Sequence record: PP456878.1 | Source: Pseudomonas phage vB_PaePAO1-KEN19 | Length of the DNA stretch: 64,000 nucleotides | Strand: one strand, 5' to 3' | In this document: positions 3,827 through 64,000 of the stretch, one piece after another | Numbering within the stretch: position 1 is the first letter of the stretch | How the letters are laid out: every line of letters begins with the position of its first letter | Translations under genes and position numbers: made by a program | Notes under the pieces: model-generated | Seen by the model: only the letters and a program-made list of their open reading frames with translations | Databases searched by the model: none | What the model was told of the DNA's origin: nothing

Positions 3827-6142
3827 TTATGGACCAGTGGGTGGAGTTGGTTCAATATGTTTCACACGTGTACCCCTGCCATTCCATAATAAGGAGTTAT
3901 CAGGTGAATCTCCCCAGAACATGACTTGATTCAAAGTATTTACTGTCACAGTGAAATTATGCCCTGCTGCCAATTGAATATATGGTCCAGCATGGTCATC
4001 TACGTCACATTGTCCATTATCGTTATTTCCGAAGAAAGCGATTTGGCCATCACCATACATCACTGTGTAATGTGTGTACAATCCTGATACACCACCAATT
4101 GGGTTACTATTTACATTAGCAGTTACATCGTTACCACGTCCATCAAACCATAATGGCGAGATAACCATAAAGGATGTATCATTACCATTGCGGATGATTT
4201 CCATGACATGTACTTTACTAGATTCAGATGTATAATCTTCAGGAGCAACTAATGGATCTATTGAATGCATGATGATGTGGGTGCAACCAATTGACATTGA
4301 ATCAATAACATGATTCAATGGTTTAATTGTGTTGTTAACAAAATCATTAAAAGCACTAATGAAGCTTGGGATACCATAAGCTGTATATACATAGTCAGCA
4401 CTGCTAGCTGGACCTATGTTTACAACAACTGTCATTTCACCAGGATAGGTGTCTTCAGTATTGGTAAATATAGCCCATGGTTTATTAACAGCAGGTACTA
4501 ATAGTTCAGATGTACCACCTTTAACACAACGATAAAGATCTTGGTGCTCAAAGATTGCTGATTCACCTGTTGAACTAAAGATGAACTTACCTGTTAACAT
4601 ATACAGAGATGTTTTATTCGCCCAGATACTTGAAGGAATATTTCCATCTATAGGTGCAGTCCATTCTACTGGAATTGGTATCATCTCATCGACTTTAGTT
4701 TCATCGATACATGCTGACTTGGCTACACCATTCTCTACCCAATACTGACCATATCGGTGAGATACCCAGGATTCCTGAGCATATCCTAAACGCTCTGGTA
4801 TAACAGCATAAGGGTTAGCTGGCGATTTAGGATGAACTACACAGTCATCTCTGACAATTGTACAATCCCACCAACTATTAAATCCAGCATAAGCATGGAA
4901 ACCTGCCGTGACACCTTGAATTAATTCCATTCGGTCATATTCACTAGTATCATCCACAATAACTGGTAATGTATCTATCTTTAATTGTACATCATCCCAG
5001 TTAGCGTTATAGCCGGCTGCCATCCTTTCAATATCACCGAATGATGGGAATTCATCTTTCCATTGCTCAGGTGTTAATCCACCAAAGGTAGAAGCATCAC
5101 CACCACCTAGTCCTGCCAGTAGTTGATCAACTTGTGTTTTAGTATATGCATTAACCTGGTCGGCAGTTACAACGTGTGGGTTATTTTCATTACTAATATG
5201 TTGATTAAGTTTCTCTTCTAGTTCATTAATTCTAGAAGCATCACCAATCTGACTATAGAGAATAGATGCAGTATAAGGTGTTAATAATACCGAATCATTA
5301 GTTACGTCTACCGCAGTAGTTGGTGTTGCAGCTGGGTAGTTAGGAACATTACCTAAATTAATATCAGCTGCTGTTAGACCGTGTACGTTACCCCTAGCCG
5401 CTATGTGGGCATTAAGCGGATTTACGGCAAACTTATTAACTAATGCTAATGTACCACGTGGGTTCGTAAATAGATCATTACGATTAGCATCTAAATGCTG
5501 TTGATCACTTGCCATTGCATAGTTTGGAACTAGTGACAAGCCAACTTGTGCTTTAGTTACCCTGTGTGGGTTATTATAATCACGAATATGTTGGTCAGTT
5601 GTACCGGCAGCCGCAGCACGGATAGCTTCTATAATCCCTTCGATACCTTCAAGAATCTCTTTACTACCTACTAATGAATCAATAGGTTGATTGTGTTCTA
5701 AAGGTGGGAAAGAAGCAGGTAATGGACCAATTGCACCCCATGACCGAATCAAGGGGTTATACTGTTTGCGTGCAAGCTCAGCCAGGATCTGCTGATTACT
5801 AAATCCCCATTGCCCACCTATTGTACGATAATCCATACCAATCATAGCGTTTATCGAACGCTTCATGATACGTATAGATCCAGCGATAGGTCTACCTATC
5901 GATTCCATAGCTTCAATAAACCAATGCCCAATAAGGTAATCAACACCTTCTACATAAGTCTGATTGGTCAGTGGGTTAAATAGTCGTAATGAATCTACAA
6001 AGAAAGGTGCAGCAAATGGTATAATGAAATAATAATCATCACCATCTGGTACCTGGAGAGTTTGGCGCTCACCTTTAATAAAGTTCTGGGGATTTGTTCC
6101 ATTGGGGTCGAATGGATATAACCCAGTTTCACCGTGGGCCAT
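3827..6142 (-). CDS. Large fibre / baseplate-periphery protein, 771 aa. N-terminal fibre-family domain, NPH repeats, and a C-terminal RCC1-like beta-propeller. Resembles my recollection of phiKZ gp131.
   Basis: N-terminus LYPFDPNGTNPQNF. Three NPH…GL..VPNY repeats. C-terminus has RCC1-like YGDGQIAFFGNNDNGQCDV. The length 771 aa matches phiKZ gp131 as I remember it. Confidence 0.55.
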   Translation of the reverse strand: MAHGETGLYPFDPNGTNPQNFIKGERQTLQVPDGDDYYFIIPFAAPFFVDSLRLFNPLTNQTYVEGVDYLIGHWFIEAMESIGRPIAGSIRIMKRSINAMIGMDYRTIGGQWGFSNQQILAELARKQYNPLIRSWGAIGPLPASFPPLEHNQPIDSLVGSKEILEGIEGIIEAIRAAAAGTTDQHIRDYNNPHRVTKAQVGLSLVPNYAMASDQQHLDANRNDLFTNPRGTLALVNKFAVNPLNAHIAARGNVHGLTAADINLGNVPNYPAATPTTAVDVTNDSVLLTPYTASILYSQIGDASRINELEEKLNQHISNENNPHVVTADQVNAYTKTQVDQLLAGLGGGDASTFGGLTPEQWKDEFPSFGDIERMAAGYNANWDDVQLKIDTLPVIVDDTSEYDRMELIQGVTAGFHAYAGFNSWWDCTIVRDDCVVHPKSPANPYAVIPERLGYAQESWVSHRYGQYWVENGVAKSACIDETKVDEMIPIPVEWTAPIDGNIPSSIWANKTSLYMLTGKFIFSSTGESAIFEHQDLYRCVKGGTSELLVPAVNKPWAIFTNTEDTYPGEMTVVVNIGPASSADYVYTAYGIPSFISAFNDFVNNTIKPLNHVIDSMSIGCTHIIMHSIDPLVAPEDYTSESSKVHVMEIIRNGNDTSFMVISPLWFDGRGNDVTANVNSNPIGGVSGLYTHYTVMYGDGQIAFFGNNDNGQCDVDDHAGPYIQLAAGHNFTVTVNTLNQVMFWGDSPDNSLLWNGRGTRVKHIEPTPPTGP

Positions 6143-6236
6143 GGTTGCCCTCCTTTAATAAAACGCTATTGCGCAATTTGTTAGCGTAATGATGTGAAAT
6201 TCACATAGGATTGTCCAATCATTCCATGGAGACTAA

Positions 6237-7523
<1,287 letters not shown>

Positions 7524-14583: not shown

Positions 14584-16749
14584 TTATTTGATAAGCTTAA
14601 GTAGAACAGCATTATCAACAAGAGCGCCACGAATAACTTGTAGATAAGATCCATCAGCAGTGATAATGTACATTTTGTGGGTACGTGCATCATCTGAATC
14701 TTTAGAGCTATTTAGACGCTTTGCCATTCCCATGATTACTTGAGTAATCTTAGGTTCAGTAAGTTTACTGATAAGCACTGCTTTCTCGGTATAAATATTT
14801 AGGCAGGATAGTTCCTCAAGGCGCCAGCCAGTTTGGAAACGCACTGATAGATCTAGAATAGAATTACCTTCTTCTGGATCAATATTAACACACATACTCC
14901 GTCCAACAATAAACGGAATACTAGCGGTAAATTTATCAGCTACTGACTTACCCTTCTTACCGATCAGATATGCGATAAGGTCACCGATATCTTCACAGAA
15001 GTCATCAATGGTTACCTTCTGACTCATTGAATCAGCCAGGAACTCATTAACTGCACTGGTGAGCCTTTCAACTAGGAACCGATAGTAGCGTTGAGCCAGC
15101 TTACCATCTAGCATTAGTTGCTTAAGGCGCTTTGCAATTAGATGCGGATCGGGTTCTTTTCGAATATCCTCGATCTCATACATGACTTCAATTGAAGCAT
15201 CAAATGGATGGGATGATGCTGCGCGATACTCATGTGCTGGAACTACATCATCTTCGCTTAGCTCAAGTGCTTCACGAACTGCATTGAGTGCACCAGCTTC
15301 TGCTTCAAGATTATTTGCACAAGCAATATAACCTTCTAGGATAACTGGATCATGTTCACGATTATCAGTTAACCCAGCATCATTTGGTGAAAACTCTTCG
15401 GCTACTTCTTTAACCGGTTTGGCATCACCCATAATGGTAGATAGCTTATAACTGGTTGCAGTACGCGCACCACCACCACGATGTGCTTGACGACGGAGAT
15501 CATCTTGAAGCTCATGCTTTAGATAATCCATTTCCATGTGATTCTCCCACTTACGATATACTTCATGTACAGTGTTATCAGGCCATTTAGCAAGGAAGCG
15601 ACAATATACTGCCGGATCCATTAGGATGCTGTATGGATTAGCTGAACTAGCAGTACGTACCCAATCAGGTTTATCTGCAACTAGATGAGCAGGTCGGATT
15701 TCAATGCCACCTGGATTATAGATAACATCCATCGGACGATCTTTATTAATTACAAATCCATTGGGTACATAATAGTTCGGATCGAATACGAGTTCTTTCA
15801 CATCTTGAGGGATGGGTAGATCCGTATTATCATTAGTTACAGTATTTGCATTTTGTTGTAGTTCAGGTAGAATCATTACATCACCTCCACCAGGGATTGT
15901 ATCATAACTACTATTTGGAGATACTTCAACAGTGGCACCCCAAGAGTCTTTAGGTTGCATGACTGGTTTGTTTTCCAGGAAAGGAGAAGAACCAGGTACG
16001 TCATATGCAGCATTTGCAATTGATGGACCAGTGTCATGATTAGTTGTTGGTGTATATGCCCCTGGAATGTTCAGCTGCGGATTAGCCATGGTAGCCGGTT
16101 GACCATAGGTCTGTTGGATACCTGCGTTAATTGGAGGTAGTTGTGAACTCATGCCAGGACGACCCATTGCTGCACCCATCCCAGGGAAACTTCCAGGCTG
16201 TACACCAGGTTGTTGATATCCACCCTGCATCATGGTGTTACCACCCATACGCATCTTTTGGATATCTGATTCAATCTGCCCGATTACACCAAGTGCCTGT
16301 TGGATATTCGGCATTAGATGTTGAACTAGACTTTGTAGCTGCGGGAAGGTTTGAGCACATTTACCAACAAAACCAGACCATACTAGAGATGCAGCTTGCT
16401 GCATTGCCTGCTGTGGGTTATTCACCATTTGACGATGAATAAATAGAAACTCTAGAAAGTCAATAACTTTCTGAGCCCACTGCTGATAATAGTTATTCTG
16501 AAAACCATTACTAGATAGCAGATTATACGCAAATGCATGAAGCTGGGTGGTAGTAGCAGCATTTTGAGCATTCAGCCGGAACAGCCCAATTACACCATTG
16601 AAATATGGTTGTAGTTGAGGATGTTGTTGATGTGGTGATAACTGTAGCGGTAGGCTAAACAGATAATTCCCATTAGGTAGGTTAGGATCGAAAGTACTGG
16701 TATCTACACTCTCAAAATCGACAGGTAGATTGTACTGTGCATAGTTCAT
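14584..16749 (-). CDS. Hypothetical virion protein (721 aa) with an internal Q/G/P/M-rich low-complexity segment.
   Basis: Long ORF. Residues ~150-290 are QQPGVQPGSFPGMGAAMGRPGM…. Confidence 0.5.
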   Translation of the reverse strand: MNYAQYNLPVDFESVDTSTFDPNLPNGNYLFSLPLQLSPHQQHPQLQPYFNGVIGLFRLNAQNAATTTQLHAFAYNLLSSNGFQNNYYQQWAQKVIDFLEFLFIHRQMVNNPQQAMQQAASLVWSGFVGKCAQTFPQLQSLVQHLMPNIQQALGVIGQIESDIQKMRMGGNTMMQGGYQQPGVQPGSFPGMGAAMGRPGMSSQLPPINAGIQQTYGQPATMANPQLNIPGAYTPTTNHDTGPSIANAAYDVPGSSPFLENKPVMQPKDSWGATVEVSPNSSYDTIPGGGDVMILPELQQNANTVTNDNTDLPIPQDVKELVFDPNYYVPNGFVINKDRPMDVIYNPGGIEIRPAHLVADKPDWVRTASSANPYSILMDPAVYCRFLAKWPDNTVHEVYRKWENHMEMDYLKHELQDDLRRQAHRGGGARTATSYKLSTIMGDAKPVKEVAEEFSPNDAGLTDNREHDPVILEGYIACANNLEAEAGALNAVREALELSEDDVVPAHEYRAASSHPFDASIEVMYEIEDIRKEPDPHLIAKRLKQLMLDGKLAQRYYRFLVERLTSAVNEFLADSMSQKVTIDDFCEDIGDLIAYLIGKKGKSVADKFTASIPFIVGRSMCVNIDPEEGNSILDLSVRFQTGWRLEELSCLNIYTEKAVLISKLTEPKITQVIMGMAKRLNSSKDSDDARTHKMYIITADGSYLQVIRGALVDNAVLLKLIK

Positions 16750-16784
16750 GTGAATAATACCTATTAAGTAGTTAAAGATTTAAT

Positions 16785-18416
16785 TTATTTTGCACGGAAC
16801 ATTAATTGAGCGTTGTCAATTATTTCACGCACTTCTTCACGACGTTCAACTAGTCCAGTTGGACCCACTTTGGTATACATATTAAGCCTACCTCGACCAT
16901 CCGGGTTGTTCTTAGGTTGGTTTTTATATTGACCTACCTCAGCAATAGATGCGTGAATAATCCTAGATGAGTCATTGATTAGAGACTTATTATGAGCCTT
17001 AGCTGTTTTAGCGCGATCCTGTGTAACTAGGATAGATGTCCCTTTAATCAACATACTGGAGTTTGGATTACTCATTGTATCGAGTTCACCATGGTCCACT
17101 GTTAATCGTTTAATAGCTGTCTGTAGTTTAAAAGAACGTTTTAAACCTTCGTTTAGCTCTTGTACAGTCCATTCACGATCACGCCTAGACTGGAACATAT
17201 AACCAAACATACTTACAGCATAGTTAAACTCTGACATCAAGTAATGCAGTACTGTTAACCTTTTACCATACATACTAGTTTCATCAATATCAGTAGCATA
17301 AAGATGATGAGCCAAACTAGTCATGATCTCGTAAAGAAGTTCCCAAATAGTACTTACATTGACACCAACTGTTTTAAGTTCTTCAATAGTCATTTCGTCT
17401 AGTGAATTACAGAAACTGTGTAGGTGTGAATCAATGTTTTCCTCTACTTTACCTTGGTGCTCAAAATCACCAAACACCATGTGACCTAGGATAACACGCC
17501 ATAAGTTGGTACTATCTACATATTCAGGTCGAGTAAACCGCATTGGAAATGCATCGACCACATACCAGAAACCAGCGATAAGTCGTGTGGCAAAAATAGA
17601 TTCTTGATGACGAGGTATAACAAGAACCATTTCACCGGTGGGATGTTTGCCTTTTAATGTTGCACTGGAATAAATATTCCACTTTTCACGTGGATATTCT
17701 TCTTCAGGAAAATCAGACAGCAGTCCACACTTAACATCTACATTAGCCCATTGTTTGAAAGTTTGAGTTACTCCAAACTGACAGAAGAAATAATGAGCTA
17801 AACATGACTCAATATGTGGTCGATTATCCAGATCTCGTTTAGTACGCTTAGCCATTTCATTGTGAATCTGTGACCAGATCACATACATGATTTTACGCTG
17901 ACCATTGCACATGTAATGGTGGTCAGTTTGTTTAAAGGTTAGCTTAGTACGACGAAACGGGATGAAGATGCTATCATTAAGTACAGAGAACCCAACATCA
18001 GTTAATACTGGTGAACCGATATATTTCGCACCATTGATAGTTACCATATTGCCTCTCTTAAAAGCTGGTAACAACATTGGACGAGGATAAAGCATTTCCC
18101 CTTTATAACTAAACATTAGGTCAATCATGTACATGTCAGTTGGAGCAATATTGGCAATACGCTTAGCATTATATTCCCGAGTAATCTCTTCAAAATGCTT
18201 AAGCGGTGTACATGCACGATTGCCTTCATATTTGAAGCCATCGGGAAATAGAACTGAACTGATATCAAATAAAGAATCAATATAACGCCTGGTCATATTA
18301 ACACCAGTATTTGGATCACGAGTCATGGTGTGTTCGACTGTGATACCATTTGCTAGTGTTGGATTCATGCAAGGCGTATTTTCACGAATCTTTTCAATTA
18401 GAAATGGATCCGGCAT
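16785..18416 (-). CDS. Hypothetical protein (543 aa).
   Basis: ORF with no recognisable motifs. Confidence 0.5.
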   Translation of the reverse strand: MPDPFLIEKIRENTPCMNPTLANGITVEHTMTRDPNTGVNMTRRYIDSLFDISSVLFPDGFKYEGNRACTPLKHFEEITREYNAKRIANIAPTDMYMIDLMFSYKGEMLYPRPMLLPAFKRGNMVTINGAKYIGSPVLTDVGFSVLNDSIFIPFRRTKLTFKQTDHHYMCNGQRKIMYVIWSQIHNEMAKRTKRDLDNRPHIESCLAHYFFCQFGVTQTFKQWANVDVKCGLLSDFPEEEYPREKWNIYSSATLKGKHPTGEMVLVIPRHQESIFATRLIAGFWYVVDAFPMRFTRPEYVDSTNLWRVILGHMVFGDFEHQGKVEENIDSHLHSFCNSLDEMTIEELKTVGVNVSTIWELLYEIMTSLAHHLYATDIDETSMYGKRLTVLHYLMSEFNYAVSMFGYMFQSRRDREWTVQELNEGLKRSFKLQTAIKRLTVDHGELDTMSNPNSSMLIKGTSILVTQDRAKTAKAHNKSLINDSSRIIHASIAEVGQYKNQPKNNPDGRGRLNMYTKVGPTGLVERREEVREIIDNAQLMFRAK

Positions 18417-18425
18417 TATAAACTC

Positions 18426-19508
18426 CTAAACTTTTGGCAAAATTAAATCCATCAGTGAACCTACAATTTTAATGGATGATACTAGATCAGAGGCAATGGA
18501 GTTTAGATCACCCCATTTTAGACCATGAATCAATACAACATCTTTTGGTTTGAATTCTTTATCAAACGTACCAGCTGCTTTTTCCTGGGCTTCCCTTTCC
18601 TTAATATCAGCCGCTGTTAAGAGCGCAGTCTTAAGACGTTCAATAACTTTCTTATCTTTAATTCCAACCATTGCAGCAGCTTCTTCATGTGTTCTAAAGA
18701 AACCATTTTCATGGAACTGTTCAGGAGGTATTACATATCTCTTTTCGCCATTATGACTAATACATCCATGCTTACCACGGATATTAACAATAAGACCAGG
18801 ATCTAATGATGGATTATAGATTGACTCAATGGCCATAATTCTGCCAGCCATTACATAAAACAATTTATCTGGTTTATTGATGTCAGTATTATACGTTAAA
18901 GAATATGTTTCATTCCATACTTGATTAGAAAGTGCTTCTTCTTCTGGACTAAGTCCGCTGTAACCAGGAGGACTAATATTTCTATTTGGATAAAATTCAA
19001 AATACTGACTATACTCAGTTTTAAATACTTGGATACCTAAACTCTGAATCCAACCACCATGATACTGATCTACTAGTTTTGATAAGTCAATTGAATACCA
19101 AATAGTAATCTCAGATAGCTGGTTATTAAACTGATCGAATGTCTGTCGACTAAATGACTGAATATATTCTAACATTTCCTCAGGTGTAAAACCTGGAATA
19201 GATTTAGCCATAACTTCATAGTTAAAACTATCATCACCACTCCATCGGTAAATGACCTTAACTACTAGTCTATTAGACATTACATACTTACGGGATGTCC
19301 CAATATTGATAGCGTGACCAGATGAATCGACTACAGTAATACGATGAAATGATTCATTCCGATACTCAACAAAACGTGAGACAGGGAGATTCCAATTAGC
19401 GTATGGATCACCCTTAGTGTATGCAGTTCCCGATTTCTTATCATACGGGTGATCGATAGTAGGCTTAACTGATACTTGAGTAAGCCCCGCAATTTTTAGT
19501 GTTACCAT
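18426..19508 (-). CDS. Hypothetical protein (360 aa).
   Basis: ORF. Confidence 0.5.
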   Translation of the reverse strand: MVTLKIAGLTQVSVKPTIDHPYDKKSGTAYTKGDPYANWNLPVSRFVEYRNESFHRITVVDSSGHAINIGTSRKYVMSNRLVVKVIYRWSGDDSFNYEVMAKSIPGFTPEEMLEYIQSFSRQTFDQFNNQLSEITIWYSIDLSKLVDQYHGGWIQSLGIQVFKTEYSQYFEFYPNRNISPPGYSGLSPEEEALSNQVWNETYSLTYNTDINKPDKLFYVMAGRIMAIESIYNPSLDPGLIVNIRGKHGCISHNGEKRYVIPPEQFHENGFFRTHEEAAAMVGIKDKKVIERLKTALLTAADIKEREAQEKAAGTFDKEFKPKDVVLIHGLKWGDLNSIASDLVSSIKIVGSLMDLILPKV

Positions 19509-19995: not shown

Positions 19996-20030
19996 AACAT
20001 AAAGCCCTCCCCGAAGGGAGGGCCTATGTC
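19996..20030. terminator. Bidirectional terminator (ACATAAA-GCCCTCCC-cgaa-GGGAGGGC-CTATGT).
   Basis: Perfect GC stem with AT-rich extensions, downstream of the putative capsid gene. Confidence 0.75.
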
Positions 20031-20113
20031 TGTTACTCTTCTAACTTCCGGGCATTACCGTCTTCCAAATAACGGATAGTCCCATTTTCTAGATAACGGT
20101 AACCCTTTCCAGC

Positions 20114-22357
20114 TCACGGCTTAAGATCAGCAAGCTTACCGTTGAACTGAGTTTCGCCCATGACTTTCTGGAAGCCAGTGATCTTGAACTCTAGTGCGAA
20201 CGGAATGTTGTTGACGTGTAGGTTGAACGGAATGGCCGCGATTTCGCGAGTAACCTGGTGACCACCACGGGTGATCGGTAGGTCAGCGATAACAGTAGAT
20301 ACGTAGAAGAACTGACCCCAGGAGAGGATGTCGTTTTCTTGTTGTACTGCGCGGGTCGGAATTACAACTAGCTTACCATCGAATAGCTGGTTGTTGGTGG
20401 AAACGATATCGTACTTGAGATAAGCACCTAGAGTACGGTCGTCACCTTTAGTCATTAGATAGTTAGCAATCTCTTTGTCGGAGCAGAAGAGATACATCGG
20501 AGTTTCATCCTGGTTACCGGAGATAACACGGAAGGCAGCTTCAATGTTGGAATCACGGTGAGCCGGGAATAGCTCAGCTTTAACACAGTTTAGGATCGCA
20601 GCGCAAACGTCGTCCCAACGATCTTTAGACTTGATGGTGTCGATGACTTTCTCAAGATCTAGTTCTTTGTAACGATAGGTCGGACGCATTACAGCGGATA
20701 GTGCACCTTCGATGATACCAAACTTCGGACGGTTGTAACCATTGTGTACAACTTCACGTAGTTGAGCAAGGTAGTTAAGCATGCGCTTAACAGCGTTGTT
20801 GCTGTTACGGATGTTGGTGTTAACAGTTAGAGCTTTAACAACCTCACCCGGACCTTCATCGGTCATGGTGTCCATCGGTAGAGTTACAGGAGCGTGCATC
20901 GGGATCGGATGACGGAACTGTAGCGCACGGGTCTGTAGTAGGTGACCACGCTGACGACGGTTAGTGTTGGTGAAGCGAGTGTCTAGTTCGAAACCGATAA
21001 CCGCTAGGTCAGTTAGCTGATCTAGAATAGCTTTAACAGCCGGGTCAGCATTATCCATTACCTGACCATCTTCGTTTAGAACTTTATCGACGTAAGTGTC
21101 GGTAGCACCAAACTTAGAATCGCCTTTGGATAGGCTGATTGTACCACCAAAACCAACGCTTAGACGTAGGCTTAGTTTAGCGGTCTTAAGATCATTGATA
21201 ACACCGTCAGCTGAACCATCGATGAAAGTGGTATCGCCACTAACAACTAGATCGTCGCTATCGAAACGGATAACAGCGTTCCGGGTATCACCAACTAGAT
21301 CGGGCTGGAACACAGCGCGAGGTAGACGGTCAACCTTGAACTTAACAACTTTACCACCGAGTAGAACGAATAGGTTCTTTAGACGACCAGCCGGATCAAT
21401 GGTGTCAGAAACTTCAAGCATGCCACGCTGGATGAGTAGGTTAGCATTGGAGTTACCCATTAGATCAAGACGTACGTTCGCTTTTAGCGGAGCAGTAGTG
21501 ATAGTTAGGTTCTGCTCGTTCTTGATGGTGTACGGAGGAACAAGAGCCGGGTCTACGAAGAAGTCAGCATTGGAACCAGCCGGATCTAGGGCAGGAATTA
21601 GTGCAATGCTTTCGTCGTCGAGGATGGAAGGATCACGATAGGCTTCTACCATGTTCACTTCTTCGTTATCCATCTTAACGCCGGATACTTCGTGGTAAAC
21701 GTCTTTCATTACAGCGATGTAAGGAAGAACCTGAACAACACCACCTTCAATCGGGTTGATAACGGTGGTCGGATAGATACGCTCAGCGAATTCATCCTGA
21801 CGGCTAGCAGCTAGGTTATAACCAATAGTTACAACACGGAAATCACGCTGTGACTTCTCGTTATAGTTCTCTAGGCCAACACCATTTTCGAATACTTGAA
21901 TGCCACCAGCAGGGCCATTGAACTGATGCTGTACAACCTTAACATGATCTTCGTTAGAAGCTTTAGCTTTGGTAATACCACGTAGTGCACGGATATATTT
22001 AGTTTCATCAGCACAGGCGATAGCAGCCATGGTAGCAGCAGTGATCTGGTTCTCACGAACACGTTCTTCACGAGCACGTACTTGAGGATCACTGGAACTT
22101 ACTCGTTCGAAACCATAGTCGTTAACGAGCATTTGCATTTTGTTATAAATTGCAGCAGCATCTTGAACGTCGGTAGCTTGTACGGTACCGAAGTTTTCAT
22201 GTGAAATGGTGCTAACAAGGGAACGACCTTGACTAACAATGCTGTCATTTAGACCAATTTCACTTTCTAGGTGGCCAATGAAATCTTCCATTGAGAAGAC
22301 TTCGTATTTCTTTTCGCCTTTGTGTTTAAACAGTTCTCTTAGGGCATGTACGCTCAT
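20114..22357 (-). CDS. Putative major capsid protein (747 aa). Strongly atypical, GC-rich codon usage suggests very high expression.
   Basis: Local GC is about 50% against about 38% background, with codon choices unlike the neighbours. 747 aa equals the length I recall for phiKZ gp120. It lies in the head-gene context. Confidence 0.5.
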   Translation of the reverse strand: MSVHALRELFKHKGEKKYEVFSMEDFIGHLESEIGLNDSIVSQGRSLVSTISHENFGTVQATDVQDAAAIYNKMQMLVNDYGFERVSSSDPQVRAREERVRENQITAATMAAIACADETKYIRALRGITKAKASNEDHVKVVQHQFNGPAGGIQVFENGVGLENYNEKSQRDFRVVTIGYNLAASRQDEFAERIYPTTVINPIEGGVVQVLPYIAVMKDVYHEVSGVKMDNEEVNMVEAYRDPSILDDESIALIPALDPAGSNADFFVDPALVPPYTIKNEQNLTITTAPLKANVRLDLMGNSNANLLIQRGMLEVSDTIDPAGRLKNLFVLLGGKVVKFKVDRLPRAVFQPDLVGDTRNAVIRFDSDDLVVSGDTTFIDGSADGVINDLKTAKLSLRLSVGFGGTISLSKGDSKFGATDTYVDKVLNEDGQVMDNADPAVKAILDQLTDLAVIGFELDTRFTNTNRRQRGHLLQTRALQFRHPIPMHAPVTLPMDTMTDEGPGEVVKALTVNTNIRNSNNAVKRMLNYLAQLREVVHNGYNRPKFGIIEGALSAVMRPTYRYKELDLEKVIDTIKSKDRWDDVCAAILNCVKAELFPAHRDSNIEAAFRVISGNQDETPMYLFCSDKEIANYLMTKGDDRTLGAYLKYDIVSTNNQLFDGKLVVIPTRAVQQENDILSWGQFFYVSTVIADLPITRGGHQVTREIAAIPFNLHVNNIPFALEFKITGFQKVMGETQFNGKLADLKP

Positions 22358-50466: not shown

Positions 50467-51630
50467 TTAAATATTGGTAGACATGGTTTTATTCATCATT
50501 TTAAAGATCTCAGTGATATCCGGACCTTTATTCTTTTCAGCCATTTTAATTTCATCAAGTCGGTGAGATGTAGATAGATCAACCCCACGATGATAAATAG
50601 TTACTCGCTCATAACGGTCATCAATAACAACAAGCATCATTAGATAGCTATTGTCAAAGATCTTTTGCCGAGTGGCGAAATCATCAATACGACCATAAAG
50701 AGAATTAGAAGCAGCTTTAAGAGTTGAAGTTGATACAATCGCGATATTTGATGCATCTGCTAATGAAACCGTACCACTGCGAACTGATTGTTTCCAGTTG
50801 TTACGGCGGCGATCGGTGATTTGTTTATAAACACCTGATTTATCATTCATTAGAATGCGATAATGTTCATCGATCATATCTTGACCTAGAACGAAGTCAC
50901 GCCAGAATTTAATTTGACCAGTTTTTACTAGAAATAGGCGATGTAGCCAAGTATCTCGTCCACCAGCACTAAAGATGTGCGCAATAATCTGAGGACTAAC
51001 AGCGGCTGGAATTAAACGGATCATAACAGGAATTTTAGCTTTCTGCTTTCCTGATTTAACATCAACGTTAACCAGCTTACCAACGGCAAGGTTTTCAACT
51101 TCATAAATCTTTTGTGTATCACCACTAGAAATACTTTGTGCACTTGTACTTTCGTCATTCGCTTCCATTGAAGCTACCCAACGCTCATGTGAGTGTTCAG
51201 CGACGATATTTGGTAAATGCACAGGCTTCTCAAAAGACTCTAATGAAGGAAGACCATCAGAATACTCTTCGGCAGAGAATACACTAGTGCGAGTTACACC
51301 TGTACGGTTAGGATTAATAGTATCGAATACTTTTAAAGTATCAATCTTATCCACACCTAGAAGCATATTAACAGCTTGTAGATAATAACCAGTAAAAGAC
51401 GATGAAACAAATTTCATAACGTCTTTCATGTAAGGTTGATCAACTAAGGTTTGGTCTACGATGACCAATGGTTCAACACGAGTTGGACGTGCTAGATCGG
51501 TTAGAGAAGAAATCTCTACACCATTTTTAGTGGCTTGTAGGACAGTCTGCATTAGACCACGTACACCTTGATCAGCAGCAACAGTCATCAGAGCAGAACT
51601 TACTGCTCCGGCGATTACAGGTAATGGCAT
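50467..51630 (-). CDS. Hypothetical protein (387 aa).
   Basis: ORF. Confidence 0.45.
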   Translation of the reverse strand: MPLPVIAGAVSSALMTVAADQGVRGLMQTVLQATKNGVEISSLTDLARPTRVEPLVIVDQTLVDQPYMKDVMKFVSSSFTGYYLQAVNMLLGVDKIDTLKVFDTINPNRTGVTRTSVFSAEEYSDGLPSLESFEKPVHLPNIVAEHSHERWVASMEANDESTSAQSISSGDTQKIYEVENLAVGKLVNVDVKSGKQKAKIPVMIRLIPAAVSPQIIAHIFSAGGRDTWLHRLFLVKTGQIKFWRDFVLGQDMIDEHYRILMNDKSGVYKQITDRRRNNWKQSVRSGTVSLADASNIAIVSTSTLKAASNSLYGRIDDFATRQKIFDNSYLMMLVVIDDRYERVTIYHRGVDLSTSHRLDEIKMAEKNKGPDITEIFKMMNKTMSTNI

Positions 51631-51666: not shown

Positions 51667-55638
<3,972 letters not shown>

Positions 55639-58762: not shown

Positions 58763-60277
58763 ATGTTTGAGTTATTGTTGTCTTCTGGACTAACAAATAC
58801 GCCTATATATTCCGATCCTTATCCAGGTCCTAAAACACTGATAGCTGGGACAAGGGAATTAGGTTTGTATGGTGAAACAACATCTTCAGAATTATTTGGT
58901 TATGATGATGCAGCTAAATTAGTTAATATGACATTTGGAACAGTAATCAATGATGGACAACCATGGTTAAAGTTCTCTAATAAAAATGTTACTTGTTACA
59001 TACCAAAGAAACCAGCTCGTAAATCAATACAAAAATCACGGCTTAATAATGCCGGACTCCGTAATGGTGACTATGAAGTTAGATTTATGGGGAACATTTA
59101 TAAATTTGGTTTATTAACAATGGCTGGTGCCACATCAGAATGGCAAAGGTTACTTTATAATGTTCACGTATCTAATTTAAATGGTGCTAACTGGCCTTAT
59201 AAATTTACAGATAATGACTTAGGTATTAACCAAGCGGTCGCTGGTGGTATTAGCACTGATGGTACTACTAACTGGGGAAGAGACCCAGGTAGTGATCCAG
59301 TTAATGACCAGCTCTATCGTGGCTACTATGCGATTGATATAACTAGCTCGTCAAGTAGTGAAACGGGTGCTGCAACCCAAGGTTGGCGTCCAGTGGTTTA
59401 TGCTAGTGGTACATATCCATTCGTTAAAGATAATGTTATTAAACTTACTGATTTTGAAACTGATAACGAAATGGCAGCAGGTGCCCAAATAGGTAACTTA
59501 GTCTATTATTACGGTGGTAAGAATAATGCTAATACTGCTCTACGTACACTGAATTTAGTCACGGGTAAGTTAACAACATTACAACCAACTGGTACGCCTA
59601 TAGCAGTTAAACAATGCTCGGCTGTTGCATTTAATGGTAAAGTATATTTCTATGGTGGTGAAAGTGCCACAGATGGTGTACTTACTAAAGATATGCAGTG
59701 TTATGATCCTGCAACTAATACATGGGAAATAAAATCACCAGGCACGATAGCTTGCCGGTATGCACGTGGAACTAGTCTTAATGGGTTAATCTACATATTA
59801 GGTGCAGCTGATACAACTGCGACAAATAATCGTGGATTTACATTAATGTACAATCCAACTACAGATACATATACCAGTGGTGCAGCATTTAATGATACTG
59901 GGGAATATACCCAAGATTATTCAGTGAGTATTTATAATAATAGCGTATGCGTTATTGGTGGTACGGTTGGTGCTGGTGTTAATACTGGAATCATATCGTA
60001 CAATCAAACCAACAATAATTGGTCCAAACCAATAACTACAGGTATACCTCTTGGTGCAGCTATTAATATACGCCCATCTGGTGAACTTTATGTAATCGCT
60101 GGTGAAAATCAAAATAACGCACCAATTAAGTATTATGAACCACGATTAGCACGATGGATAAATTTAGGTAATTTAGAAACTGGTTTAGTGGATGCAGGTT
60201 TTGCCAATACGTTTAATAATGACGGTAAGATTTATGTTCTAAACGGTAATCAGAATTTAAAATACCAAATTAGTTAA
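58763..60277 (+). CDS. Kelch-like beta-propeller protein (504 aa).
   Basis: Repeated blades end in …YYYGG / …VYFYGG / …IYILGA / …VCVIGG with conserved W/Y spacing. The N-terminal 240 aa are non-repetitive. Confidence 0.5.
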   Translation: MFELLLSSGLTNTPIYSDPYPGPKTLIAGTRELGLYGETTSSELFGYDDAAKLVNMTFGTVINDGQPWLKFSNKNVTCYIPKKPARKSIQKSRLNNAGLRNGDYEVRFMGNIYKFGLLTMAGATSEWQRLLYNVHVSNLNGANWPYKFTDNDLGINQAVAGGISTDGTTNWGRDPGSDPVNDQLYRGYYAIDITSSSSSETGAATQGWRPVVYASGTYPFVKDNVIKLTDFETDNEMAAGAQIGNLVYYYGGKNNANTALRTLNLVTGKLTTLQPTGTPIAVKQCSAVAFNGKVYFYGGESATDGVLTKDMQCYDPATNTWEIKSPGTIACRYARGTSLNGLIYILGAADTTATNNRGFTLMYNPTTDTYTSGAAFNDTGEYTQDYSVSIYNNSVCVIGGTVGAGVNTGIISYNQTNNNWSKPITTGIPLGAAINIRPSGELYVIAGENQNNAPIKYYEPRLARWINLGNLETGLVDAGFANTFNNDGKIYVLNGNQNLKYQIS

Positions 60278-60281
60278 CGAA

Positions 60282-60314
60282 ATAAACCCTCCCGTAATGG
60301 GAGGGTTTTATGAT
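60282..60314. terminator. Bidirectional terminator (AATAAA-CCCTCCC-gtaat-GGGAGGG-TTTTATG). Its core is nearly identical to the element at 7526-7558.
   Basis: Same stem and gtaat loop as the 7.5-kb copy. Confidence 0.75.
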
Positions 60315-60380
60315 GTGTCGAAGTTTATGTTAGCAGTAATGATCAATTGATAATATTTAATTAGGAATACCTTCCATTTT

Positions 60381-60721
60381 TTAATATCCTTCATTAAGTA
60401 GTTCTGCTAGAGCACGTGCCTGTGAAATATCAGTAGAAGCAAAAACATCAGAAAGATAGTTATCATGTTCTTTTGCATTCTGACGCAATTCATCCATTAG
60501 ATGTTTATTAGATACCGCCCATACTTTCCACAGATTTTTATAATCATCATATTTGGGATTATACCCGTCTAGTGGTGGTTTTCCTTTACCAGCTTTCCAA
60601 TGGTTGGAGTATATGCGATATCCTTTACAATCTAACTGCCAAGCTTCCTCAATTGTTCTGCCATCAGGAAGCCTTGCGTAAAGAGCCGAGAATCTTTTGT
60701 CACCAACAGATGAACATTCAT
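60381..60721 (-). pseudogene. Frameshift-interrupted gene. A Shine-Dalgarno sequence plus ATG opens a 29-codon ORF, and a 115-codon open frame with no start codon continues in the -1 frame. One extra A in the A4 run (plus-strand T-run 60695-60698) would fuse them into a ~120-aa protein (MNVHLLVTK·RFSALYARLPDGRTIEEAWQLD…).
   Basis: Hand translation of the minus strand. GAGGAGGA sits 6 nt 5' of the ATG at 60721. The long frame has no ATG, GTG or TTG until its last 25 codons. Confidence 0.45.
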
Positions 60722-60748
60722 ATCCTCCTCGGCGCTTCCACTGATATA

Positions 60749-62665
60749 TTACTTTGGGTTCTTATAGGTATTAATAAACTTCTCTAGCAGGGTGTCCATT
60801 TTAGGAGCACCCATGATCTTCTGTGTGATTTCAATAGCATTAACCCTACCACCTGTTAAGTTTACGCCAACTTCACGGCGATGGTGTTCACTAATTCCTT
60901 CCATCATTGAGAATTCCATCACACATGTTTCACGTGCAATATTTAGAATCTGACTAACGTTAGGATATGTCGACACGATGTCAAGGTCGGCGATATGACA
61001 GAAGATTAAGGTTTTATAATTCGGTAAATCTTTAACACACTGCAATCCATTTGGACCTGCCATGTATGATGGTAGTGTAACAATCCAATCATTATGGCCA
61101 ATAACATATTGATCAAGTTCATGCACCATCTGATCTGAACTTGAACCAATGACACATGGCTCTGGTCTATTCAAATACCAGAAGTGCATATCGTCACATA
61201 GTCGTTTTGGGTTAGAACTAAAGTTCTTATAGTCAGATGCCTTAGAGAATAGACTTATAGAGCGACCAAGGTCATTTACTTGTTCATCAAGTTGTTCTAG
61301 TCGAATGGAGTCGATGATGTTATAAAGACCATATTTGATTTTATGCTTAGTCTGCATCTCACGGTGCCAATCGATACCACCAAGATGTGCAGTTTCTTTA
61401 AAGGTTAACTTACCAAATTCCATTACATATCTAATAGAATCACCATAGGTAAAGTTATCATTTAATATAAAATCATCCACCGGTACCCATTCATTACTAC
61501 CTACATTTTTAATATATTTAGTAATAACGCCGCCTGGTCGGTCAACTAGTTGTTTATTAAAACCTTCAATAAAATCTTCTAAGTCCTTATCATTTTTAAT
61601 GGTCGTGGATTTATCGATGTTTAGTTCTTTTCTAAGAATAGACTCTAACCGATAGTTAGGATCACGTCCTTTAGCTAATCGAGTTACTCGATAAGTTGAC
61701 ATAGAATCGATACATTGAAAACTAGAGGGTGCTGTAATCCAATGCCATTGATCCTCCGGTCCTTTAGATTTAGTGACCCCAGATGCAGTGGTGGTCATAG
61801 GTTCATCAATCTTAAAATGGAAATACCTATAATTCTTAGGTACCGATGGATCAGAAAAAACATCAGCTGGATTAACACCATAGTGTTCTAATGTTTTTAA
61901 GATTCTACCAATGTCGAAGCTAATATTCCAGAATGCGAAGAAATCTGGTTTCCAGGTATGTAGTCGTTTAAAACATTCAATAATAATATCTACTGGTGTT
62001 TCAACAACCATTACTTCAATATCTAGACCACGTTCTTTAATTAGATGCGATAGCACCTCTTCTTTTTGTGCTTGTTCTAATGTCTCTTTCACTGGATCTT
62101 CAATATCACTAACCCATCGTTTTAAATAGGCTAAGAAAGCTTTGTTCTTATGTGTAACTGACATACAGATAATCTGACCATCGTTCTCAGCTTCATAAAC
62201 GTTGGTTTCGATGTCACCGCCAGCAACAGTGTTTAGAGAGATTAGACCAGGATAACGTTCTTGATAATCATGCTTCAGATAACAGGTTGAACTAACATCA
62301 CTGCCATATAGGTAAGGACTACGCGCTAGTTGACGAAGAGATCTAGCCGAATAGTCACCTAGGATTTTACTAATCTTACGTTTCATGTCAATTTGAGTTG
62401 ACATGTATTTAACTAAGTTACGCTCATATTCGTAATCTTTCTTTTCTTTATGGTTACGCATTCCTTTTGAGGTAATCCAAAAAGGACGCTGGTAGTTTTC
62501 CCACATCCTTAAATTATTTGCAGTTGTACCATCTTCAAAATGAATTCGTTCTTTAACGAAATGCGCATCTGTAAACTTACCAAATTGATCAGTACAATAA
62601 GTAATATGTTTGGCTTCAATGCCCTTAATCTTTTTCTTATTTGTAACCTGTTGTTCATTAGACAT
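60749..62665 (-). CDS. N-terminal half of a family-B DNA polymerase (3'-5' exonuclease domain plus palm motif A). It is a split or fragmented polB, and the C-terminal half with motifs B and C is not adjacent.
   Basis: Exo I is GGDIETN, Exo II is WNISFDIGRI (N…FD), Exo III is YGLYNIIDS (Y…D), and motif A is DLDIVSTYPN (Dx2SLYP-like). The ORF ends ~55 aa after motif A. Confidence 0.55.
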   Translation of the reverse strand: MSNEQQVTNKKKIKGIEAKHITYCTDQFGKFTDAHFVKERIHFEDGTTANNLRMWENYQRPFWITSKGMRNHKEKKDYEYERNLVKYMSTQIDMKRKISKILGDYSARSLRQLARSPYLYGSDVSSTCYLKHDYQERYPGLISLNTVAGGDIETNVYEAENDGQIICMSVTHKNKAFLAYLKRWVSDIEDPVKETLEQAQKEEVLSHLIKERGLDIEVMVVETPVDIIIECFKRLHTWKPDFFAFWNISFDIGRILKTLEHYGVNPADVFSDPSVPKNYRYFHFKIDEPMTTTASGVTKSKGPEDQWHWITAPSSFQCIDSMSTYRVTRLAKGRDPNYRLESILRKELNIDKSTTIKNDKDLEDFIEGFNKQLVDRPGGVITKYIKNVGSNEWVPVDDFILNDNFTYGDSIRYVMEFGKLTFKETAHLGGIDWHREMQTKHKIKYGLYNIIDSIRLEQLDEQVNDLGRSISLFSKASDYKNFSSNPKRLCDDMHFWYLNRPEPCVIGSSSDQMVHELDQYVIGHNDWIVTLPSYMAGPNGLQCVKDLPNYKTLIFCHIADLDIVSTYPNVSQILNIARETCVMEFSMMEGISEHHRREVGVNLTGGRVNAIEITQKIMGAPKMDTLLEKFINTYKNPK

Positions 62666-62735
62666 TGCTATAACCTCAGCACATATTGATATTTATCTAC
62701 GTACTATATTAGTGTCTAGTAAAAGTAATAATCAG

Positions 62736-62766
62736 CATAAAGCCTCCCCTAGGGGAGGCAATATGT
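62736..62766. terminator. Bidirectional terminator (CATAAA-GCCTCCCC-tagg-GGGAGGC-AATATG).
   Basis: GC stem with AT-rich arms. Confidence 0.7.
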
Positions 62767-64000
62767 TTACATACCAGCTTTCTGCCGGAAGAAGTGTAGA
62801 ACGAGTTGCCGTTTACCTTCAGGGATGAAACGTGCAAGATAGTTGATATCTACCTGATAAAGCGCATCTGATACATCACTAGTAAATAGGCAGAATAGAG
62901 TAAGAAGATTAATGTGTGCTTCTTGACGGTTATTCTGAGTAGGTAGAGTAGCAACAAAGCGAAGTGCGTTAGATTCACTAAATAGAGTATTACGATTTTT
63001 CTTAACGAAATCAAAGATAATATCCATGCCTGATTTAAAGCCTTCAATATCTTCGATTGTCATTACGTAGTTGAATACATCATCTAGTTTCTTTTGTGCA
63101 TCGCCACCACGTTCGATAGTGATATAGTCACCAGGTTTAGCACCAGTGGCAAACTGCTCTAGACGAGATTCGATAAATACTTGGTTCATTTTGGTCATAC
63201 CTTTACGAAGTACAGGTTCATTAGATGTTGATTCACTATTCAAGATTTTAACTTCCCCGGTTGGTTTAATATCATCTTTACCAGAGAATACTTTCCATTG
63301 TTCAACAATAGTTTCAATATCTTGACTAGTGGTAGGTAAGAATAAGCGATCGCGTAACTCAATAGCAATTTTAAAATCTTTTATCAGATTACTATTTTTA
63401 ATAAGTCCTTCAGCCCAGTCTTCAAGCTCTGCTGTCGTCCAATCGGTAGGTGGAGCATTATCACGAATAACACTATTAACCCAACTACCACGTAGTGTTT
63501 TTGGTGGAGTAATACCTTGTTTAACAAAATCAACCACTTCTTGGGTAGACCAATCTAGTGGAATATCACTAGTGTGAATACGCAGTTGCTTGACTAATTC
63601 TTCAAGCTTGATACTGTCTTCAGTATTGCGAATATCTTGTTTCAGTGTATCTTCATTAACTACCGGTACAATTACTTCCTCAGTAGTCTCATTCTCTTTA
63701 GCCCGTTTAGTTAAAATATCATCAGCAATATCGGCGATATCATTAACTACACCAGTTAGACGATGGTTAGCAGCATCGATTAGTTCATCATCTGACCATT
63801 CATCATAAGGACGATATTTACGGGTTGGGTCAAATACAAAGTTGCCGAGTTCAGTTTTACCTTTAGCAGGACCACCTACAGATTCCCAAGCAGCAATGTC
63901 TTCATTGGTCCAGGATTCTGGGATATTGTAAGTAGTACGAATGCCTTCCCAATTAGGTTCGCCGTAAACAGCGCCTTCTGCAAGAGGAGTAGGTTCAGTT
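62767..64000 (-). CDS. Hypothetical protein, 5'-partial (at least 411 aa, open to the window edge). The GTG at 63537 chosen by the ORF track is probably internal.
   Basis: Codon-by-codon check shows no stop in this frame between 63538 and 64000. Confidence 0.5.
   Translation of the reverse strand, partial: TEPTPLAEGAVYGEPNWEGIRTTYNIPESWTNEDIAAWESVGGPAKGKTELGNFVFDPTRKYRPYDEWSDDELIDAANHRLTGVVNDIADIADDILTKRAKENETTEEVIVPVVNEDTLKQDIRNTEDSIKLEELVKQLRIHTSDIPLDWSTQEVVDFVKQGITPPKTLRGSWVNSVIRDNAPPTDWTTAELEDWAEGLIKNSNLIKDFKIAIELRDRLFLPTTSQDIETIVEQWKVFSGKDDIKPTGEVKILNSESTSNEPVLRKGMTKMNQVFIESRLEQFATGAKPGDYITIERGGDAQKKLDDVFNYVMTIEDIEGFKSGMDIIFDFVKKNRNTLFSESNALRFVATLPTQNNRQEAHINLLTLFCLFTSDVSDALYQVDINYLARFIPEGKRQLVLHFFRQKAGM

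Follow-up and report, generated by a model that had tools for sequence, protein, structure and literature searches.

A reading frame of 638 codons at 60749..62665 of a 64,000-nucleotide stretch of DNA from the Pseudomonas phage vB_PaePAO1-KEN19 (PP456878.1; the stretch is called the window below) carries the exonuclease motifs and the palm motif A of a family-B DNA polymerase (polB) and ends soon afterwards, which raises the question of where the remainder of the enzyme is encoded, or whether the product is part of a polymerase at all. With a probability of about 0.97, the product of the reading frame is DNAP-N, the N-terminal subunit of the replicative family-B polymerase that phiKZ-type (chimallivirus) jumbo phages encode in two genes; no result contradicting this identity came up. 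Publications already cover the gene and its partner as well as the activities and structure of their complex, and no new biology comes from this window; what the case does show is that a reading of raw sequence alone correctly spotted a very divergent polB half that is missed by Pfam.

Motifs, profiles and fold of the reading frame

The DNAP-N reading frame lies on the minus strand and, in the ORF listing, runs from an ATG through 638 amino acids to a stop codon. The four motif strings named in the original prediction are all found in it, in polB order:

60749..62665, minus strand: DNAP-N gene, orthologue of phiKZ gp82 (ORF listing, PHROG 3011, tblastn, residue numbering as in PMC13648687)
62201..62221, minus strand: Exo I, GGDIETN, residues 149-155 with D151 and E153 (sequence; invariant in 39 of 39 homologues)
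61901..61930, minus strand: Exo II, WNISFDIGRI, residues 246-255 with D251 (sequence, homologue alignment)
61307..61333, minus strand: Exo III, YGLYNIIDS, residues 445-453 with D452 (sequence; profile alignment to RB69 YNIID)
60959..60988, minus strand: polymerase motif A, DLDIVSTYPN, residues 560-569 with the catalytic D562 (sequence; RB69 profile alignment)

The exonuclease patterns occur in their proper succession, as D151-I-E153 (DxE), N247-ISF-D251 (Nx2-3[FY]D) and Y448-NII-D452 (Yx3D), and behind the exonuclease domain the motif A pattern (DxxSLYPS) appears as D560-L-D562-IVSTYPN. The frame ends 69 residues past the last residue of motif A (76 past D562); the distance had been given as about 55 residues, the sole inaccuracy of the original observation.

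Homologues of the protein numbered 274 at E<=0.001, with lengths of 457-727 aa among the 120 listed, and 39 of them, 42-67% identical to the query, were aligned. In this alignment D151, E153, D452, W246, N247, Y445 and Y448 are invariant; residue 251 is D in 36 of the 39 sequences and E in the other three, and D560, D562, Y567 and P568 are invariant in every aligned homologue that reaches the motif A region. Judged by this conservation, the polB motifs of the reading frame are not due to chance.

Among phage protein families the best assignment is PHROG 3011, "DNA polymerase" (E=1.2e-241), residues 6-636 being aligned with positions 2-570 of the 576 of the profile. A Pfam scan of the reading frame gave no match, even at E<=10, and a single-sequence phmmer search against the PDB returned only noise (calponin and REV1 C-terminal domains, for example, at E>0.1); both outcomes indicate that the DNAP-N protein is very divergent. 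When the family profile was compared with PDB sequences (entries released up to April 2026, among which the structure of the phiKZ complex is not found), RB69 gp43 was the best match, with E=0.0024-0.04; the YGvYNiiDs of the family is aligned there with RB69 Exo III, and aDLDivStYPn with the RB69 motif A, FDLTSLYPS (residues 404-432). The RB69 profile value of E=0.0024 is modest, and the link to polB from sequence would be thin without the fold match.

That match comes from an AF2 model built from the alignment, which has a mean pLDDT of 82 and a pTM of 0.78. Averaged over blocks of ten residues, the pLDDT lies at 70-98 for residues 11-510, with most blocks above 87; it drops to 31-55 from residue 516 to 638, as is expected for a partial palm domain that would need its partner for folding. 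A Foldseek search of the model against the PDB put RB69/T4 gp43 on top (E=2e-12, probability 1.00) and gave 206 matches at E<=0.001, of which all 50 listed are polB structures, yeast Pol epsilon included; the polB N-terminal domain and the RNase H-like exonuclease fold are both present in the model by this search. The view that the frame represents the N-terminal half of a polB is thus upheld by profile and by fold, RB69 gp43 leading in both, with Exo III and motif A aligned. Three parts of the protein can be delimited:

61136..62644, minus strand: N-terminal plus 3'-5' exonuclease domain, residues 8-510, predicted to fold independently (AF2 pLDDT, Foldseek)
61421..61618, minus strand: lineage-specific insertion in the exonuclease domain (the "little finger" of PMC13648687), residues 350-415 (mixed alpha/beta unit in the AF2 model)
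60752..60901, minus strand: segment 1 of 3 of the "palm insertion", residues 589-638, site of the split (limits from PMC13648687; low AF2 pLDDT)

The model suggests that residues 8-510 could fold autonomously. Many homologues are aligned in one BLAST piece over no more than about 58% of the query, as would fit a variable insert at residues 350-415; the little-finger-like insertion at these residues occurs, according to PMC13648687, only in a subset of Pseudomonas chimalliviruses.

The partner gene and the constancy of the split

By tblastn, DNAP-N is 98.3% identical to phiKZ gp82 (NP_803648; NC_004629 77960-79873, annotated "DNA polymerase") and 100% identical to the alleles of PA7 and Koomba Wadjak 2. 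A megablast search with positions 60000-64000 of the window found 48 Pseudomonas phage records, 46 of them covering at least 80% at 95-99.8% identity, all phiKZ-like jumbo phages. One near-identical phage, Bobae, has 7 mismatches to the window over 4001 bases, and nearby annotations in its record include ChmA, virion and non-virion RNA polymerase subunits and a DnaB-like helicase. By these similarities the genome is that of a phiKZ-type Pseudomonas jumbo phage of the nucleus-forming kind. The G+C content of the window is about 37% throughout, except for a peak of 47% at 20-22 kb.

Motifs B and C, which had been said to be missing downstream, are absent from the reading frame and from the whole window by regular expression and tblastn searches. 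The sole match to the K...NS.YG expression in the six frames of the window, KAASNSLYG at 50692-50718 (minus strand), is put down to chance; it lies in an ORF of 387 aa that belongs to an unrelated phiKZ family (phrog_3239) and weakly matches a virion structural protein family. A tblastn search of the whole 64-kb window with the 731-aa DNAP-C described below gave a best value of E=1.4 and hence no partner, and the same search with DNAP-N revealed no paralogue.

The record of Bobae does contain a partner: a 731-aa "divergent family B DNA polymerase" is encoded at 16303-18498, on the same strand as the DNAP-N gene (52216-54132) and 33.7 kb from it. This DNAP-C is 100% identical to PHIKZ050 (gp50), carries KINNNSYSGG (motif B-like) and ISDTDS (motif C; D424, D426), and matches the Pfam family PF20286, "Divergent Family B DNA polymerase", over its full length with E=0, as well as phrog_2927. 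It lacks a motif A, and what Pfam and PHROG recognise in it begins at the palm insertion and the fingers. The search for an ORF with motifs B and C elsewhere, which the original prediction had proposed, hence leads to a gp50 orthologue about 34 kb off in Bobae, and the proposal that the polymerase is made from at least two separately encoded polypeptides finds its second polypeptide in this protein. A complete polB elsewhere in the genome had been named as a finding that would speak against that proposal; none is reported for phiKZ-type phages. As gene numbers fall toward the right end of the window, the partner gene of the phage studied here would lie past position 64000.

The stop of the DNAP-N frame falls mid-domain relative to other polBs, as it might in a truncated pseudogene or in an assembly or frameshift artefact of a once-complete polB; such an origin is exceedingly improbable, because the position of the stop is kept in 46 near-identical genomes, in 285 of 290 phage records (at least 80% coverage) and, bar truncated entries, in the best 150 of 1248 metagenome clusters (50% identity), and because no polB-like sequence occurs downstream in any frame and the catalytic residues are strictly conserved. 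The clusters stem from a profile search of 1.84 billion representative proteins, which yielded 1248 relatives at E<=0.001 and 558 at E<=1e-30; the best 150 of the 1248 are 452-894 aa long, none has a C half, and they reach to within a few positions of the end of the profile, apart from 5'- or C-terminally truncated entries (about 450-640 aa). The longest, an 894-aa homologue (P0122), was considered as a possible fusion of the N and C halves and rejected, its extra 330 residues being an acidic low-complexity tail with no polymerase domain.

By tblastn of the phage collection, 290 records contain the N half and 305 the C half. The counts per genus are identical for both (Pseudomonas 80, Erwinia 62, Salmonella 24, Vibrio 23, Serratia 21, Aeromonas 20, Klebsiella 16, Ralstonia 13), and the surplus of C-half records consists of weak partial matches in Bacillus AR9-like phages, Yersinia phiR1-37 and Staphylococcus PALS_2. 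Both halves are present in about 290 phage genomes. In 18 genomes taken from both lists, the two genes are never neighbours, being separated by 27.6-93 kb, and they lie on the same strand in five, all of the phiKZ type, and on opposite strands in the other 13. As far as these distributions go, the split is a stable feature of the family and not an accident of one genome; the lack of motifs B and C in the N half is the defining mark of the split subfamily and does not count against polB homology.

The two-chain enzyme and its relation to other polymerases

Thomas et al. 2016 (PMC5105663) state that the "split subunit DNA polymerase" of phiKZ was found ten years after the genome was sequenced, and credit Cornelissen et al. 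2012; the remark in the original prediction that such a split was reported for phiKZ relatives is right, the arrangement having been in print, by that citation, since 2012, and a structure has been added (PMC13648687). The phiKZ polBs were recognised by Kazlauskas et al. as a divergent cluster that forms a sister clade to the T4-like enzymes (PMC7544198, PMC4889955), and Iyer et al. 2021 describe a unique divergent family B polymerase clade as a hallmark of group 1 jumbo phages (PMC7824862). According to a 2024 bioRxiv preprint (10.1101/2024.03.24.586471), gp82 and gp50 are found inside or beside the phage nucleus, and so is the helicase gp75. A transposon-mutagenesis preprint (10.64898/2025.12.19.695335) is irrelevant in this context, its "gp82" and "gp50" belonging to other phages. 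Nucleus-forming jumbo phages, to whose unusual replication machinery the split polymerase belongs, are of interest in phage therapy and as a model of how replication can be compartmentalised in bacteria.

Basu et al. (preprint, October 2026) purified a stable 1:1 complex of gp82 (DNAP-N, 638 residues) and gp50 (DNAP-C, 731 residues), made from the two separately expressed proteins, and solved its structure by cryo-EM at 2.1 A; its architecture is RB69-like (PMC13648687). The break in the chain lies inside a helical "palm insertion" formed by residues 589-638 of DNAP-N and residues 1-98 and 221-419 of DNAP-C, and the interface between the two proteins, of which only the complex was purified, is extensively interdigitated and hydrophobic (PMC13648687). 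The exonuclease site comprises D151, E153, D251 and D452, with D151 and E153 as metal ligands in the structure, and in the polymerase site D562 of DNAP-N stands opposite D426 of DNAP-C (PMC13648687). The complex has polymerase and exonuclease activity, the exonuclease mutant D151A/E153A serving as control, and when D562A and the exonuclease mutations are combined, neither primer extension nor degradation is seen (PMC13648687). A further protein, gp155 (Rhc), in which an RNase H is combined with a clamp-derived domain, binds to the thumb as well as to the duplex as it emerges, and synthesis is strongly enhanced by it (PMC13648687). All residue numbers given in that work, including D151, E153, D251, D452 and D562, match the reading frame in the window exactly.

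These data bear on the reading that the protein is a stand-alone DEDD 3'-5' exonuclease whose likeness to motif A is coincidental, the polymerase being gp50 alone or some other enzyme. It would agree with the lack of a Pfam polymerase domain in the reading frame, with the exonuclease part being the confidently folded part of the AF2 model and with the labels "ribonuclease" or "nucleic acid binding protein" of some homologue records; it is nonetheless almost certainly wrong, given the invariance of D560, D562, Y567 and P568 across the family, the alignment of this stretch with the motif A of RB69, the lack of a motif A in gp50, the place of D562 in the polymerase site and the inactivity of the mutant that contains D562A, which indicates that gp82 supplies a catalytic palm residue. 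The original prediction had itself named a stand-alone DEDD exonuclease as the outcome that would overturn it, and on conservation, alignment and mutant that alternative fails.

With the frame taken as DNAP-N, this subunit contributes the N-terminal domain, a complete DEDD exonuclease for 3'-5' proofreading and, with motif A (D562), the first strand of the palm. The other subunit, DNAP-C, is the gp50 orthologue encoded on the same strand about 34 kb off; from it come the thumb, the fingers with motif B and the remaining palm with motif C (D424/D426). Two segments of DNAP-C and the last 50 residues of DNAP-N fold jointly into one mostly hydrophobic domain, which makes the enzyme an interdigitated and presumably obligate 1:1 heterodimer; its polymerase active site is built from both chains and exists only in the heterodimer. 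Whether the N-terminal half also works alone had been asked from the start; because of the interdigitated hydrophobic interface (PMC13648687), DNAP-N would be nonfunctional on its own and an independent role is unlikely, while the predicted independent folding of residues 8-510 means that it may have some activity or partner of its own.

A mature enzyme of one chain, with the halves joined by a split intein or by RNA trans-splicing, would have precedents in the split-intein polBs of other phages, such as the Aes123 PolB1 (PMC11923092), and group I introns do occur in the DNAP-N gene of relatives (see below). It can be given hardly any credence: the cryo-EM structure shows residues 589-638 of DNAP-N and 1-98 of DNAP-C as separate chains in one domain, the complex was reconstituted from two separately expressed proteins (PMC13648687), the genes are separated by 27.6-93 kb in the 18 genomes compared, in most of them on opposite strands, and the introns of the relatives interrupt motif A and not the place of the split.

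The heterodimer to which DNAP-N most probably belongs can be set beside several known systems. The phiKZ gp82 is the same gene, with 638 aa, the same catalytic numbering, the same neighbours and the same distant partner gene; DNAP-N differs from it at about 1.7% of the residues, and no functional difference was found. Further split family-B polymerases are the PolB of Methanothermobacter and that of Nanoarchaeum, which, like the Aes123 and Pfu examples below, show that such an enzyme can function from two encoded polypeptides; in some T4-like Aeromonas phages the enzyme is split into gp43A and gp43B. By profile and by structure the best match is RB69/T4 gp43, in which N-terminal domain, DEDD exonuclease and motif A follow one another as they do in DNAP-N; it is, however, one chain of 898-903 aa, whereas the phiKZ-type enzyme consists of two chains of 638 and 731 aa, has two large insertions (palm insertion and little finger), shows only about 13-16% identity in the Foldseek alignments and has gp155/Rhc as its processivity partner, in place of the ring clamp of gp43. 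The PolB1 of phage Aes123 is likewise a polB of two polypeptides, but there an intein ligates the halves into one chain (PMC11923092). An engineered split Pfu polymerase also consists of two polypeptides, but is broken at the fingertip (PMC3061061), whereas the phiKZ-type break lies in the palm insertion ahead of the fingers, the two chains remain unjoined and tens of kilobases lie between their genes.

Surroundings of the gene and introns in relatives

The neighbours of the DNAP-N gene are genes for virion proteins and not for replication; among them is one for a virion RNA polymerase subunit, as in phiKZ. Three signals flank the gene:

62674..62677, minus strand: GAGG ribosome-binding site, 8 nt before the ATG at 62665 (read from the sequence)
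62742..62759, no strand assigned: palindromic, G+C-rich hairpin between the upstream gene (stop at 62767) and DNAP-N, terminator-like on both strands (pattern match only)
60284..60308, minus strand: terminator-like hairpin of 10 pairs, 3' of DNAP-N and two small annotated ORFs (pattern match only)

The last of these hairpins adjoins the end of a convergent gene for a kelch-like virion protein. A scan for sigma-70 promoters gave 3 matches versus 11.6 in shuffled sequences; the phage uses its own RNA polymerases, so this result is not meaningful. A tRNA scan of the 64-kb window found none.

In a separate observation, the DNAP-N gene of the PhiPA3-like phage HPP-Temi is interrupted exactly between D562 and I563. 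Its first exon ends with ...HVADLD and is followed by TAA and by an ORF for an HNH endonuclease of 445-451 aa (L003 4721-6076); the reading frame picks up again as IVSTYPNVSQ (L003 6412). Behind the endonuclease ORF comes a match to the Rfam group I intron model with 59.2 bits, compared with a gathering score of 50 (E=4e-13), and the boundaries of the interruption obey the group I rules, U ending the 5' exon and G the intron. Goslar has the same layout with a NUMOD1/HNH ORF, the group I match there, with 44.7 bits (E=9e-9), falling short of the gathering score. In the published literature that was examined, no mention of an intron in the DNAP-N gene was found.

The DNAP-N gene in the window has no intron and is identical at only 62 of 90 nt to the joined exons of HPP-Temi around the junction. 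Its intron-less motif A site (60959-60988) might serve as the target of the HNH homing endonuclease from the D562|I563 intron of the PhiPA3-like phages and Goslar; we regard this as unlikely. If it were so, intron-mediated interference competition between jumbo phages that infect the same cell would have a second locus in the polymerase gene, next to the published case of PhiPA3 gp210 and phiKZ gp178.

A predicted intron within motif A of relatives

In two relatives, the PhiPA3-like phage HPP-Temi and Goslar, the gene for DNAP-N (the orthologue of phiKZ gp82, that is, the N-terminal half of the split family-B DNA polymerase) is interrupted inside motif A, exactly between the catalytic D562 and I563, by a predicted group I intron which encloses an HNH endonuclease ORF. 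The homologous site of the window is uninterrupted, and its DNAP-N gene contains no intron.

Predicted introns and the homologous site
HPP-Temi (PP968062), extract L003, 4690-6411: predicted DNAP-N intron; Rfam RF00028, 59.2 bits, above the gathering threshold
Goslar (MK327938), extract L004, about 4498-6300: predicted DNAP-N intron; Rfam RF00028, 44.7 bits, below the gathering threshold
Window, 60979-60981 and 60976-60978, minus strand: codons flanking the D562/I563 boundary

The arrangement resembles the published intron-endonuclease case of PhiPA3 gp210 and phiKZ gp178; no mention of an intron in motif A of DNAP-N was found in the literature, as far as the papers were accessible. Broken matches are also seen in two other phages. 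In Pseudomonas phage vB_PQ1 (PQ516283.1, 29937-32022), DNAP-C (the gp50 orthologue carrying motifs B and C) matches in two segments, and the region is annotated as four distinct “DNA polymerase” CDS; in Viktualia (PV037725.1, 180680-182752), the match to DNAP-N is likewise split in two and spans an extra “hypothetical protein”. Both cases suggest that the polymerase genes of some relatives are further interrupted by introns or mobile elements.

The neighbor of DNAP-C and a motif B look-alike

In Bobae, a phage nearly identical to the window, the DNAP-C gene is preceded at a distance of about 200 bp, with one short annotated ORF of 30 codons in between, by a gene for a 138-aa protein, which the available part of the preprint on the phiKZ gp82-gp50 complex (PMC13648687) does not name as a component.

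Bobae (PV754031), 15686-16102 (extract L002, 5687-6103): 138-aa “DNA polymerase-associated SH3 family protein” (phrog_3235)
Window, 50692-50718, minus strand: KAASNSLYG, matching the family-B motif B pattern K...NS.YG, inside ORF 50467..51630

The latter was treated as a chance match; its 387-aa host protein, a member of phrog_3239 that weakly matches a family of virion structural proteins, has no similarity to polymerases.

Strain variation and base composition

Between positions 60000 and 64000, six of the seven mismatches to Bobae fall within 187 bp (61805-61991) of the DNAP-N gene and cause only one amino acid change; the cluster resembles a short patch exchanged by recombination between strains of the phiKZ type. 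Roughly half of the almost identical phage records, among them PA7, Brmt, LC, and PA02, align to this segment no further than query position 3869, and 63869-64000 is therefore a strain-variable stretch. It lies in the 5′ portion of the gene that precedes DNAP-N; this gene, truncated at the window end, codes for a virion structural protein with a length of 508 aa in Bobae.

The G+C content reaches 47% at 20001-22000, compared to about 37% elsewhere, and this peak covers one large ORF.

Window, 20114..22357, minus strand: 747-aa ORF, a candidate counterpart of the phiKZ major capsid protein gp120, which its size and position fit
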